Source of the DNA: Escherichia coli
GTDB taxonomy: Bacteria > Pseudomonadota > Gammaproteobacteria > Enterobacterales > Enterobacteriaceae
Reading direction: 5' to 3' (one strand)
NCBI RefSeq assembly: GCF_017348835.2
Contig: NZ_CP071375.1
DNA length: 64,000 nt
Every line of letters starts with the position of its first letter. Position 1 is the first letter of the stretch. Positions 7,485-17,106 of this stretch are shown here, piece by piece. Under the pieces are notes generated by a model, which saw only the letters and a list, made by a program, of their open reading frames with translations, was not told the origin of the DNA and ran no database searches. The position numbers and the translations under genes are program-made.

Positions 7485-7572
7485 AATGTCGGATGCGACG
7501 CTGGCGCGTCTTATCCGACCTACGGGGACGCATGTGTAGGCCGGATAAGGCATTTACGCCGCATCCGGCAAG
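7485..7572. repeat. REP element cluster
   Basis: Oppositely oriented REP-like palindromes (tcggatgcgacgctggcgcgtcttatccgacctac ... gtaggccggataaggcatttacgccgcatccggca) between convergent norW and hypF. Confidence 0.6.
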
Positions 7573-11944: not shown

Positions 11945-14835
<2,891 letters not shown>

Positions 14836-14841
14836 GCAACC

Positions 14842-14923
14842 GTGCCGGATGCGGCGTGAACGCCTTATCCGGCCTACATGTCGCACGAACTATGCAGGCC
14901 CGATAAGCACTGCGCATCGGGCA
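14842..14923. repeat. REP element pair
   Basis: gtgccggatgcggcgtgaacgccttatccggcctac and gcaggcccgataagcactgcgcatcgggc palindromic units between ascB and the inserted genes. Confidence 0.55.
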
Positions 14924-14948
14924 ATCTGGAGTTTGGCATCAGTCAAAA

Positions 14949-15368
14949 TCAAAGAAACCATTCCGGCTTAACGCCAAATCGGGCTGAAAGTGCCTTAATG
15001 TGGGATATTGTCAGGGATCGTTGTCCAGACAAAATCTGACTAACCAGGGATTTAGAGCCGATTTCGTTCTTCAAATCCGCATAGGTCAGATTATGTTGAT
15101 CAATCAACGTGCGAAGTAACGCCACGCCAACCGGCATTGCCGCAACGGCTTTGTCGAACTCTGCAAACTTTTCGTTGTTGTTTTCATACTCTGCAATGCG
15201 GCTCGCCAGAAAGTCGATAAGTGGATTGGTGTCATCTTCTTCAATCAAATATTCGACCAGTTCCAGTGCTTCACGATAATCATCTTCTGAGTCACTGCCT
15301 CCCAGAAAGGGGACTGCATTGACCAGTTCTCTTGTTGCTTTAACAGCGCGTGCAGCATTAGCAGTCAT
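14949..15368 (-). CDS. HigA-like antitoxin (XRE-family HTH)
   Basis: 139-aa ORF with a C-terminal XRE-type HTH (LTYADLKNEIGSKSLVSQILSGQRSLTISHIKALSARFGV); 4-nt overlap with the upstream toxin-like ORF; resembles chromosomal HigA but sits at a different locus. Confidence 0.75.
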   Translation of the reverse strand: MTANAARAVKATRELVNAVPFLGGSDSEDDYREALELVEYLIEEDDTNPLIDFLASRIAEYENNNEKFAEFDKAVAAMPVGVALLRTLIDQHNLTYADLKNEIGSKSLVSQILSGQRSLTISHIKALSARFGVKPEWFL

Positions 15369-15676
15369 TCTTTGTTCTCTCTGTAGTAACGTGTCAGTTT
15401 GTCATACTCTGCGTGATTCGTTATGTGCTTCACAAAGAACCGCTTATTAACAAAGTTTATGTAGGCAATAACCCTAAGATTGTTCCCGCCGACATCCAGA
15501 ACGTACCATTTGTTGCGATATTTAAAATTGTCGAGGTTGGGAAACGCCGTTCGCATTTCTTCTGGCGTAGAAAAATCCGTTTCCTTAATAACCCGATACA
15601 ATGCCTGAAGAGCCAGAGCGTCGTTAGGATATTTACGCGCAGACTCTTCAAATGGCACTTTAGAAATGATGTGCAT
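15365..15676 (-). CDS. HigB-like (RelE/ParE superfamily) toxin
   Basis: 103-aa basic ORF upstream of, and translationally coupled to, the HTH antitoxin; contains a FPxLDNFKY...VGGN.LRV motif as in HigB-type toxins; toxin-first order typical of HigBA. Confidence 0.7.
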   Translation of the reverse strand: MHIISKVPFEESARKYPNDALALQALYRVIKETDFSTPEEMRTAFPNLDNFKYRNKWYVLDVGGNNLRVIAYINFVNKRFFVKHITNHAEYDKLTRYYRENKE

Positions 15677-15837
15677 TTTTAAGTTTTAACTTCCTTATAG
15701 TAAGTAAACAGCCACATCTGCGAGTTCTATCCTCATGTGTTCGGAAACTATAGCTCATCAAATCCAAGTTCACAATATGTAAACACTTGCGCGTGATATA
15801 ATTACCCCCAAAATCCTCATAACCACTCTGCAAAAAG

Positions 15838-16611
15838 TCAGTTCTGATTCACCCCATCAAGCACATCCCCCTTTATCAAGCAACGCTGCGTCAGCGACAG
15901 ATCTTCCGTTTGTGTGTCGCGCCCGGCGATGGGTTTGAGGACGAGTTTACGGTTGGGGGTATAAGTAAAGCGCGTGAGCGCGGGATAGCTTAACTTGCCA
16001 AACCAGCCGTGAACACGCTGCCATTTGGCGTCTTTTACCTGATACAGACTGGTTATCCAGTAACCAGAATTAAACTGCATATCCAGCAATTGCGTGTGAC
16101 CATTGCCTTGTAAATCCAGCAAATCATCTACGCCAGTTTTGCTTGCAGTGTAGAATCCCCAGGGTTCAAAGACACAGGGACGGCCTTCGTGCGTGAACGT
16201 CATGAGGATTAAATGTGCATAGGGCGCCAGACCATTACCGGCACTTGGCAACCAGATAACCAGATCCTGAATGCCGTTACGATCCAGATCGGCGCGATAG
16301 AGCTGCCCTTTGCCCGCCATATTTGCCAGCAACCCCACTGGCACCGTCCAGGATTTACCCGCGCGGTCTTTAGCGGTTAATTGCCAGTAATCCTCTTCAT
16401 TTGGCATCTTCTCAAGCGTCACGCCAGCAACGCCGATTTTTCTAAAATGCCAAGTTTGCTCGGTATAATAAGGCATGGTCAGGAGAGGTTTCAGCGCCCG
16501 CTTTTGCGCATATTCGCTGCCACTCATTGGCAGATATTCGGTAAAGCTGGTGGCCTGTGCAGACTGCACTAAGCTCAATAAAAAAGCGCACATCCCTGTT
16601 CTGATGTTCAA
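15838..16611 (-). CDS. hypothetical secreted protein with two D-x-D-x-N-G-x-x-D-like motifs
   Basis: 257-aa ORF with a predicted Sec signal peptide (MNIRTGMCAFLLSLVQSAQA); DLDRNGIQDLVIW and DLQGNGHTQLLD resemble FG-GAP/VCBS-type calcium-binding repeats. No family I can name with confidence. Confidence 0.55.
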   Translation of the reverse strand: MNIRTGMCAFLLSLVQSAQATSFTEYLPMSGSEYAQKRALKPLLTMPYYTEQTWHFRKIGVAGVTLEKMPNEEDYWQLTAKDRAGKSWTVPVGLLANMAGKGQLYRADLDRNGIQDLVIWLPSAGNGLAPYAHLILMTFTHEGRPCVFEPWGFYTASKTGVDDLLDLQGNGHTQLLDMQFNSGYWITSLYQVKDAKWQRVHGWFGKLSYPALTRFTYTPNRKLVLKPIAGRDTQTEDLSLTQRCLIKGDVLDGVNQN

Positions 16612-16635
16612 TTCCCTGAATTCCCTGATGAAGAA

Positions 16636-17106
16636 TTATTCTTCTTCCACCGCTAACTGCGCAAATCCGCCGTTCCCTTCCCAGCCTTCCAGTCGTTGAT
16701 AAACGGTTTCTACCGCATCTTTAATCGGCTGGGTCATTGGGTAGTAAAAGCCGACGATATCCGGCTGGATGCCGAGAAAAATCACCTCGCCAATATCTTC
16801 TTTCAACTGGTCGATAAGATAGTTCAGCGGCATGTTATGGGTAGTCATCATAAACATTTCGGCGATATCATCCGGATCGATGATGCGGATCTCGCCGGGG
16901 TTTAGCCCCATATCCGTGGCGTCGACAATCAGCAGTCGTGTCGGGCGCAGTTCGCGGATAGCGACAATGTCGTTTTCCGGTGCGCTACCGCCGTCAATCA
17001 CCACCCAGTTGCCTTTCGGCGCGGCGGCGCACTTTTCCGCCAGCAGCGGACCTGCGCCATCATCGCCCATCATGCTATTGCCAACACAGAGTAAAACGTC
17101 AGTCAC
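16636..17106 (-). CDS. hycI: hydrogenase 3 large-subunit maturation endopeptidase
   Basis: 156-aa ORF, last gene of the hyc operon; HycI/HybD-type protease signature. Confidence 0.9.
   Translation of the reverse strand: MTDVLLCVGNSMMGDDGAGPLLAEKCAAAPKGNWVVIDGGSAPENDIVAIRELRPTRLLIVDATDMGLNPGEIRIIDPDDIAEMFMMTTHNMPLNYLIDQLKEDIGEVIFLGIQPDIVGFYYPMTQPIKDAVETVYQRLEGWEGNGGFAQLAVEEE

Follow-up and report, generated by a model that had tools for sequence, protein, structure and literature searches.

The window analysed here is a stretch of 64,000 nucleotides from Escherichia coli (NCBI RefSeq assembly GCF_017348835.2, contig NZ_CP071375.1), in which the genes ascB and hycI are separated by an interval, 14836-16635, that is bounded exactly by the stops of ascB (14835) and hycI (16636). 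As the initial annotation had recognized, this interval contains three minus-strand ORFs, predicted to encode a HigA-like protein, a HigB-like protein and a secreted-type protein of 257 amino acids (Table 1), and it has no integrase gene, nor any ORF of integrase size, and no tRNA gene within 8-24 kb of it. A search for the hallmarks of mobile elements (integrase or transposase, tRNA or att sites, terminal inverted repeats) detected none at the locus, where higA, higB and the 257-aa gene are the only ORFs. The corresponding spacer in E. coli K-12 measures only 158 bp.

Table 1. Features of the ascB-hycI interval and its hycI flank, in window coordinates
Feature	Position	Strand	Description
REP unit 1	14844..14877	+	Hairpin GCCGGATGCGGCGT/ACGCCTTATCCGGC (inverted repeat I6); just after ascB
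REP unit 2	14898..14922	+	Opposite orientation, GCCCGATAAGCA/TGCGCATCGGGC (inverted repeat I15); pairs with unit 1
Left TCAG repeat	14939..14942	.	4 bp, 5 bp (TCAGT) in this allele; flanks higBA
higBA cassette	14943..15837	-	~895 bp; lower G+C, 41-46% versus ~53% in the flanks
higA, antitoxin	14949..15368	-	139 aa, C-terminal HTH; PF01381 (HTH_3), E 2e-9
higB, toxin	15365..15676	-	103 aa; PF09907 (HigB_toxin), E 1.4e-23
Putative higBA promoter	15775-15747	-	-35 TTGTGA, 17 nt, -10 TATAGT; consensus scan
Candidate HigA operator	15768-15784	-	Imperfect palindrome GTTTACA-TAT-TGTGAAC overlapping the putative promoter; read from the sequence
Right TCAG repeat	15838..15841	.	15838-15840 also serves the 257-aa gene as stop codon (TGA)
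257-aa gene	15838..16611	-	Signal peptide, then beta-rich domain with FG-GAP-like DxDxNGxxD loops
hycI flank	16636..17106	-	Last known hyc operon gene; precedes the 257-aa ORF by 24 nt

The two smaller ORFs are readily assigned to known protein families. HigA matches its Pfam family with 37.7 bits (cut-off 23) and aligns over residues 9-138 with the structure of E. coli K-12 HigA, 5IFG_B (E 2.5e-35), and HigB scores 83 bits (cut-off 27) and aligns without gaps over residues 1-100 with K-12 HigB, 5IFG_A (E 2.6e-22). The higB gene lies upstream of higA and overlaps it by 4 nt, which is the toxin-first order typical of higBA. On the basis of toxin family, HTH antitoxin and gene order, the pair is predicted to be a type II toxin-antitoxin (TA) system of the HigBA type. 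Its candidate operator is conserved in E. albertii and recognizable in the divergent allele L002; promoter-like sites such as the one that this palindrome overlaps are no more numerous than expected from shuffled sequence.

The pair shares its protein families and gene order with the K-12 HigB-HigA system (YgjN-YgjM, 5IFG; 104 + 138 residues as compared to 103 + 139 here) and aligns with both of its proteins over their full length and without gaps, but it is a highly divergent paralogue of that system, which resides between fadH and rlmG. It belongs to the same lineage as the plasmid-borne higBA genes of Klebsiella, Enterobacter, Leclercia and Cronobacter, to which it exhibits 71-73% nucleotide identity over ~730 bp. 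Relatives at this level of identity were found on 549 plasmids and in one Cronobacter phage, and hence this TA lineage is mobile. Unlike these relatives, the hycI-linked higBA of E. coli is exclusively chromosomal and single-copy, and no plasmid was found to carry it at an identity of at least 80%; a 96% match to a "plasmid" was rejected, the 4.9-Mb record being a chromosome. Likewise, the whole 1.8-kb segment was not detected as a unit on any plasmid, phage or island elsewhere at an identity of at least 80%. At the hycI-linked locus, higB is present in 20% and higA in 46% of E. coli genomes. Our search of the literature retrieved no paper in which higB is mentioned together with hycI, and the two that name ascB with hycI are irrelevant; a published TA inventory of AIEC lists an orphan higA between fadH and rlmG, and the hycI-linked gene is absent from it.

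The segment next to ascB carries imperfect extragenic palindromes of the ~35-bp type that occur in many copies per genome, as is characteristic of REP/BIME sequences. REP unit 1 has a second copy in the window, at 7536-7569, where the chance expectation is zero, and sequence matching the first ~105 nt of the interval occurs at a median of 32 places in each E. coli genome, with all multi-copy matches confined to query positions 3-108. A sub-threshold match to the REP-derived naRNA4 family at 14830-14874 was the only result of the Rfam search. Contrary to the initial description of the segment as bounded by REP elements, these sequences are confined to the ascB side, and towards hycI there are 24 nt of unique sequence. 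The related suggestion that the REP-rich spacer is a recombination hotspot retains in its favor that higBA adjoins the REP pair, but is weakened by the one-sidedness of the REPs. In E. whittamii, in E69 and in E. coli genomes that carry the 257-aa gene alone, REP unit 2 lies directly 3' of the stop codon of this gene, and we therefore consider it to be part of the gene's ancestral 3' flank.

The 257-aa ORF, which is represented in RefSeq by a 251-aa version starting at the ATG at 16593, begins with what reads by eye as a Sec-type signal sequence (MNIRTGMCAFLLSLVQSAQA, followed by TS) and yielded zero matches in searches of Pfam and NCBIfam. Homologues of this ORF immediately follow hycI in Salmonella, E. 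whittamii, a cryptic Escherichia clade, E. albertii and Phytobacter, and in K. spallanzanii the homologue lies beside the hyc operon, with a symE gene between it and hycI. The order of genes is hycI, homologue, hydN, hypF in Salmonella, E. whittamii and Escherichia sp. MOD1, and hycI, homologue, REP, ascB in E. coli E69 and Phytobacter; in Escherichia and Salmonella the gene is on the same strand as hycI and separated from it by 24-42 bp. Identity to the window's gene declines with phylogenetic distance, from 92-93% (nucleotides) in other Escherichia clades through 84-85% in E. albertii to 74% in Salmonella, and amounts to 61-63% at the amino-acid level in Klebsiella and Phytobacter. The dN/dS values of 0.12-0.27 indicate purifying selection. 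Judging from this conservation of sequence and position, the 257-aa gene is ancestral and is not accessory DNA.

The short K-12 spacer retains both ends of this gene: its last 27 nt are joined, at an ACATCCC repeat, to its first bases, and in both 3' end and junction the scar agrees exactly with the gene-only haplotype L029/L030. It follows that K-12 lacks the 257-aa gene because of a deletion. The proposal of the initial annotation, that all three genes arrived as one accessory insert of ~1.8 kb in a K-12-like ascB-hycI spacer with the REPs as the site of recombination, might have seemed natural, given that the spacer measures ~158 bp in K-12 and in half of E. coli, that the REP pair abuts the segment and that only a minority of genomes have all three genes. 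This proposal is refuted by the K-12 scar together with the outgroup synteny (six taxa have the hycI-linked gene without higBA), and we regard it as highly improbable. It would also have to accommodate the difference in G+C between higBA (41-46%) and the 257-aa gene (~50%), the presence of REPs on one side only and the occurrence of gene-only as well as higBA-only genomes. An accessory insertion is thus upheld for the ~0.9 kb of higBA and not for the 257-aa gene, which is linked to hycI across genera.

The different states of the locus were counted among 5,426 complete E. coli genomes in RefSeq, as megablast coverage classes and not by typing of each genome. All three genes are present in 747 of these genomes, higA plus the 257-aa gene in 580, the 257-aa gene alone in ~134, higBA alone in 344, higA plus a stump of the gene in 837 and the K-12-type scar in 2,745. 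As a cross-check, the 837 genomes assigned to the stump class compare with 838 partial matches to the 257-aa gene. A junction probe derived from E69 yielded zero gene-only genomes at a coverage of at least 80%, which is a false negative (the ~134 include L029 and L030) caused by a differing REP spacer, so the coverage method can miss classes. Complete RefSeq genomes over-represent clinical clones, and the percentages given here are consequently not population frequencies. The whole segment exists in 14% and some part of it in 49% of the genomes, so it is not a possession of most E. coli; its absence from K-12 is nevertheless the derived state as regards the 257-aa gene. Deletion junctions are shared, and the locus is eroding in E. 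coli.

The junctions of higBA can be defined to the base. Direct repeats had been reported as not visible at this locus, but TCAG(T) is found on either side of the cassette, at 14939-14942(3) and 15838-15841(2). TCAG occurs once at the empty site of E69, CCATCAGTTCTGA, and at that of E. coli FDAARGOS_1285, GmF046 and K-12, GGCATCAGAGCTGG, as it does in L029 and L030, and twice in the window. The filled site is longer than the empty one by ~899 bp, one TCAG copy included, and the gap relative to the gene-only E. coli L029 is ~897-899 bp. Neither terminal inverted repeats nor MITE-like structures were found at the ends of the cassette. In E. albertii both junctions are identical to those of the window, and the empty site persists in the ~134 gene-only E. 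coli genomes and in outgroups. As far as can be read from these junctions, higBA alone is inserted DNA, and it is inserted exactly at the stop codon of the 257-aa gene. A repeat of 4 bp is too short to distinguish between target-site duplication and microhomology.

The time at which the cassette entered is another matter. In the 257-aa gene, the gene-only haplotype L029/L030 shares 99% identity with L007, which bears higA, and the empty site of L029/L030 could therefore reflect precise excision or recombinational replacement and might not be a site that was never occupied. A rival reading would have higBA enter before the split of E. coli and E. albertii, so that it was ancestral to all E. coli, that every empty site within E. 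coli is a secondary precise loss (the result either of a deletion from one TCAG repeat to the other or of recombination with a cassette-free allele) and that K-12 lost all three genes. The identical junctions in the two species are consistent with such a history, as is the presence of higA, with or without higB, in ATCC 25922, the Nissle-derived SYNB1934 and ST131, which we take to be members of phylogroup B2. However, empty sites predominate among the outgroups (E. whittamii, MOD1, E69, the E. albertii type strain, Salmonella and Phytobacter), repeats of 4 bp seldom give rise to exact excision, and between E. albertii and the window dS is 0.11 for higA as compared to 0.40 for hycI and 0.53 for the 257-aa gene, a disparity that fits a later exchange of the cassette. 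We consider so early an entry to be possible but rather unlikely.

Where higB has been lost, higA often remains: 1,417 genomes (26% of the 5,426) have higA without higB. In six of six E. coli variants HigA is annotated as the same protein, WP_000126294.1, and the higA genes of E. coli variants exhibit up to 16 synonymous and 0 nonsynonymous differences. The same is seen within single deletion classes, with 9 synonymous and 0 nonsynonymous differences between L001 and L007, and 7 and 0, respectively, between L003 and L004. From this pattern of substitutions the orphan higA looks functional, and we infer that HigA might have a role of its own in the absence of its toxin.

The function of the 257-aa protein was approached by way of its predicted fold. 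An AlphaFold model based on 14 sequences reached a pLDDT of 57.6, and the model used here, based on an alignment of 79 sequences, one of 92.5. This model gave no significant match in a Foldseek search of the PDB, and in a profile search of the PDB with the family the sole alignment was with the FG-GAP loop of integrin alpha-V, at E 0.06 or worse. FG-GAP_3 is matched by 48 of the 79 relatives at E values up to 0.1 (best, 1.5e-7), and the window protein itself has no match. The protein resembles the inhibitors PliI, X-Tfi (XAC2610) and Tsi1 and the Ca2+-binding FG-GAP repeats of the integrin-alpha type without a significant match in sequence or by Foldseek, and no cognate hydrolase gene is found nearby; we treat the resemblance as a lead and not as membership. 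It might point to a periplasmic inhibitor or immunity protein of the PliI, X-Tfi or Tsi1 kind, that counteracts a peptidoglycan hydrolase, be it a lysozyme or a secreted antibacterial effector, and for which the position next to hycI would be incidental; we rate this as unlikely, though worth keeping in mind. Among eight loci of distant family members no partner gene, effector or hydrogenase, was shared, and most of the metagenomic contigs did not extend far enough for a judgement.

Position suggests a different association. The 257-aa gene keeps its place and strand relative to the hyc operon across genera (four species or clades of Escherichia, Salmonella and Phytobacter), and in the window the minus strand shows no terminator-like site in the gap from hycI to the 257-aa ORF. 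With a gap of only 24 nt and no predicted terminator, the gene is probably transcribed with the hyc operon or just after it. The protein might accordingly be tied to [NiFe]-hydrogenase, the gene being effectively a tenth hyc gene, and the homologue of Thiolinea disciformis (35% identical), which directly follows hypF-hypC-hypD-hypE, can be cited in support along with the close spacing described above for Escherichia and Salmonella (symE intervening in K. spallanzanii). On the other hand, the seven other distant contexts lack hydrogenase genes, and the gene is dispensable, having been deleted in ~70% of E. coli, including K-12, where formate hydrogenlyase works. Moreover, Hyd-3 is a cytoplasm-facing enzyme, for which a secreted protein would be an odd partner. 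A link to hydrogenase therefore appears doubtful to us. The same doubt applies to a bolder version, in which this secreted FG-GAP/PliI-like protein is the unrecognised last hyc gene of Enterobacteriaceae, missed on account of the K-12 deletion, and the orphan HigA, with higB and the promoter deleted, has been captured as a regulator expressed by read-through from hyc; we would venture it only as a long shot.

Taken together, the locus is very probably a composite of three layers of differing age, namely an ancestral gene, a higBA cassette and recurrent deletions in E. coli. The 257-aa gene would have followed hycI, with the REP pair past its stop codon, since before the divergence of Escherichia, Salmonella, Klebsiella and Phytobacter. 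A higBA cassette of ~895 bp with its own promoter would then have been inserted once at the stop codon of this gene, most likely by a single illegitimate event (through microhomology or a transposase acting in trans) that created the 4-5 bp duplication TCAG(T), with spread and replacement through homologous recombination within the adjacent core genes as the most likely sequel. By homology, HigB would be a ribosome-dependent mRNA endonuclease, which HigA would neutralize while repressing the operon. A deletion of ~0.4 kb removed higB and the promoter and spared higA, another, of 1,032 bp, took higB together with the larger part of the 257-aa gene, and a separate one affected no gene but the 257-aa gene. 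The K-12 type, half of the genomes, would have arisen from the gene-only haplotype by a deletion of ~0.74 kb inside the gene, between the ACATCCC repeats. The window strain represents the most complete state of the locus and not a novel acquisition.

This history corrects the direction of inference, since it is the reference K-12 and not the window strain that is altered here. It also offers a clean example of the entry of a TA cassette, with empty and filled sites known to the base, a repeat of 4-5 bp and an absence of mobility genes, and of a pattern of decay in which the toxin is lost first and the antitoxin remains unchanged in a quarter of E. coli, a pattern that touches upon the open debate about chromosomal antitoxins as junk, anti-addiction devices or regulators. 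Finally, it draws attention to an unstudied conserved gene at the end of one of the best-studied bacterial operons, missing from the very strain that was used to characterize that operon. The two leads that emerge, this hyc-linked gene and the conserved orphan antitoxin, are modest ones.

As a type, the locus is familiar: it is a decaying chromosomal TA islet similar to ccdO157, which was reportedly described by Mine et al. in 2009. According to two reports (PMC7167474, PMC3184786), ccdO157 is a chromosomal TA islet between folA and apaH and, like higBA, a small TA module without mobility genes in a variable, REP-containing spacer between core genes; the same reports have it present, degraded or absent depending on the E. 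coli strain, which is read there as decay after horizontal acquisition. [quoted passage not shown]

In this E. coli window, the interval 14836-16635 runs exactly from the ascB stop codon to that of hycI and is 100% identical in strain PE164. The initial annotation described it as a novel accessory insertion of three genes bounded by REP elements, without integrase or tRNA. The genes and REPs are indeed present between the two stop codons, and no tRNA or integrase-like ORF was found in the interval, but its hycI side is free of REPs and its multi-copy matches are all confined to the first ~105 nt. The REP adjoining ascB (14830-14874) gives a sub-threshold match to Rfam naRNA4 (41.9 bits vs a cut-off of 59.5), and the window has a second, near-identical REP at 7536-7569. 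The finding holds up and is more structured than was first thought: the locus is better read as an ancestral gene, an old toxin-antitoxin cassette and recurrent deletion, a reading that largely replaces that of an accessory insertion.

Features between the ascB and hycI stop codons
Feature	Position	Strand	Pfam match
REP hairpin 1	14844-14877		
REP hairpin 2	14898-14922		
higA	14949-15368	minus	HTH_3
higB	15365-15676	minus	HigB_toxin
Spacer, 161 nt	15677-15837		
257-aa ORF	15838-16611	minus	
Gap ahead of hycI, 24 nt	16612-16635		

Homologues of the 257-aa gene are few and consistent in position. The order is hycG-H-I, homologue (after a 26-nt gap), hydN, hypF in Salmonella enterica, with the same order in E. 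whittamii and Escherichia sp. MOD1-EC7003; hycI, homologue, REP, ascB in 'E. coli' E69 and Phytobacter diazotrophicus; hycI, symE, homologue, parDE, symE, ascB in Klebsiella spallanzanii (L011 4422-6814; L017); and hycI, homologue, higB, higA, a 142-aa ORF, an ascB stump and hydN in one E. albertii isolate (L009). The E. albertii type strain NBRC 107761 (L018 4001-4770) has no higBA and a frameshifted homologue, a pseudogene in two frames (755 nt vs 756). Identity to the window's gene drops as phylogenetic distance grows, from 92-93% of nucleotides in other Escherichia clades through 84-85% in E. albertii to 74% in Salmonella, and to 61-63% of amino acids in Klebsiella and Phytobacter. Because of this gradient, the hycI-linked position and pairwise dN/dS values of 0.12-0.27, the gene is, judging from sequence comparison, vertically inherited and functional rather than cargo.

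In K. spallanzanii a symE copy lies on either side of the homologue and the parDE pair directly follows its stop; the 3' flank of the gene seems to collect toxin-antitoxin modules in more than one genus. A 1.6-kb contig (L015) of a MAG labelled Collinsella sp. carries an Escherichia-type hycI end (96% amino acid identity over 24 aligned residues) and the 257-aa gene (84%); its presence in an actinobacterial MAG is almost certainly binning contamination.

What stands of the insertion claim concerns higBA, for which empty and filled sites can be compared. The REP-side flank reads ...GGCATCAG joined to AGCTGGTTCACCCC in the gene-only E. coli FDAARGOS_1285 and GmF046, and ...GCCATCAG joined to TTCTGATTCACCCC in E69, which has the gene and no higBA; the TCA of the empty-site flank is the stop codon of the 257-aa gene. 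These flanks are 899 bp apart in the window, where the block starts after TCAG at 14939-14942 and closes with a second TCAG at 15838-15841, a direct repeat that the initial annotation had missed and that reaches 5 bp (TCAGT) in the window allele. The cassette itself (~895 bp; G+C 41-46% vs ~53% in the flanks) has no terminal inverted repeats at its ends and contains a promoter-like site that overlaps an imperfect palindrome, GTTTACA-TAT-TGTGAAC. Both junctions are identical in E. albertii, and higBA was therefore inserted once. HigB and HigA can be aligned along their whole length with the K-12 HigB-HigA structure 5IFG, and related higBA genes, at 71-73% nucleotide identity, occur on 549 plasmids, mostly of Klebsiella, and in one Cronobacter phage; the E. 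coli cassette is strictly chromosomal and single-copy. Since it carries no mobility gene, it would have entered by a single illegitimate insertion, and it may later have moved between haplotypes through homologous recombination in the core genes on either side. At the exact position of this insertion, MOD1-EC7003 (L013 4771-4810) has ~26 nt of unrelated sequence, CTTTTCACGACGAAGAATCAGTCAGA, after the gene's stop and between two CTGA repeats, which could be the footprint of another insertion and excision.

Sub-queries matched against 5,426 complete genomes located higA in 2,508 (always full length and in one copy), higB in 1,091, higA with the adjacent 3' end of the 257-aa gene in 1,327, the body of that gene in 1,461 at a coverage of at least 80% and in 838 as a partial match, the whole interval in 747 and the K-12-type spacer in 2,745. 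The classes derived from these matches are the full arrangement (747 genomes), higA plus the 257-aa gene after a deletion of ~0.4 kb that removed higB and the promoter-like site (580), the 257-aa gene only (about 134), higBA without it (344), higA with a gene stump of 61 codons after a 1,032-bp deletion (837, close to the independent 838 partial matches), the K-12-type scar (2,745) and others (about 39). The junction is common to genomes of the same class, so that each class represents one old event; in E. coli the locus is in decay. In a few genomes, ORF calls of 202-209 aa (P0042, P0044, P0046; one named 'ygjM' by its source) fuse the N-terminal stump, signal peptide included, to HigA (PF01381); these may be annotation artefacts or real fusions in stump-type strains. 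The asc operon is reduced to the last 17-18 ascB codons in E. coli AVS0151 (L004 775-1409) and E. albertii (L009 6737-7362), both with a 142-145-aa ORF without Pfam match between higA and hydN.

The absence of the 257-aa gene from K-12 is derived, an outcome that the initial annotation had named, for the segment as a whole, as counting against its reading. In the 158-bp K-12 spacer two REPs are followed by GGCATCAG, AGCTGGTTCACCCCATCAAGAACATCCC and TGTCCTGAT..., in that order. The 27 nt in the middle match the 3' end of the gene exactly as it stands in the gene-only allele of FDAARGOS_1285 and GmF046; an ACATCCC repeat connects them to its first bases, and a further 16 bp are missing. For higBA, the outgroups favour K-12 ancestors that never carried it, although the 99% identity between one gene-only and one higA-bearing haplotype leaves room for carriage followed by precise loss or allelic replacement.

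In 1,417 genomes (26%) higA occurs without higB, and the higB-deleted class also lacks the native promoter-like site and palindrome (15747-15784). RefSeq gives HigA one and the same accession, WP_000126294.1, in each of the six E. coli structural variants examined; between their alleles there are as many as 16 synonymous differences and no nonsynonymous ones. Within deletion classes these differences number 9:0 (L001 vs L007) and 7:0 (L003 vs L004), which argues for constraint on higA after toxin loss, unless recombination re-imported alleles. Candidate roles for a lone HigA are anti-addiction against related plasmid HigB toxins and regulation via hyc read-through.

Among E. coli strains (window 15838-17106; L001, L007, L029, L030), dS is 0.18-0.31 at hycI vs 0.06-0.10 at the adjoining hycH. 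Synonymous divergence of the 257-aa gene is also unusually high, with two deep allele classes (87-88% identity between classes, 99% within one), and together these values suggest that the end of the hyc operon carries old haplotypes, either balanced or imported.

The 257-aa ORF opens with what reads as a typical Sec signal sequence and matches nothing in Pfam or NCBIfam. Searching 1.8 billion representative proteins with a profile returned 485 clusters, mostly of environmental proteins that are 330-360 aa long and have an additional C-terminal domain; 48 of 79 relatives have weak FG-GAP matches, and a conserved loop, DLDRNGIQD, aligns without significance to integrin alpha-V Ca2+ sites. AlphaFold, given the 79 sequences, predicted an all-beta fold (pLDDT 92.5), for which Foldseek returned no match. 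That the protein is a periplasmic inhibitor-like binding protein is rather unlikely. At the eight loci compared, the distant homologues have no conserved partner gene, and hydrogenase genes occur in the distant contexts only of Thiolinea disciformis (L023 22-4909), where a 326-aa homologue follows hypF-hypC-hypD-hypE after 95 bp on the same strand; a link to hydrogenase is quite improbable.

As a pair, higBA adds a new paralogue to a well-known family and is already labelled HigB/HigA in RefSeq, and no description of it at the ascB-hycI locus was found in the literature searched. The interest of the locus is modest and derives from a gene next to hyc that is unstudied and from an orphan antitoxin that does not vary. 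As a locus it is a close parallel to the ccdO157 islet, which lies between folA and apaH and, as described in PMC7167474 and PMC3184786, likewise occupies a variable, REP-containing spacer and has a toxin-antitoxin module that is present, degraded or absent depending on the strain.
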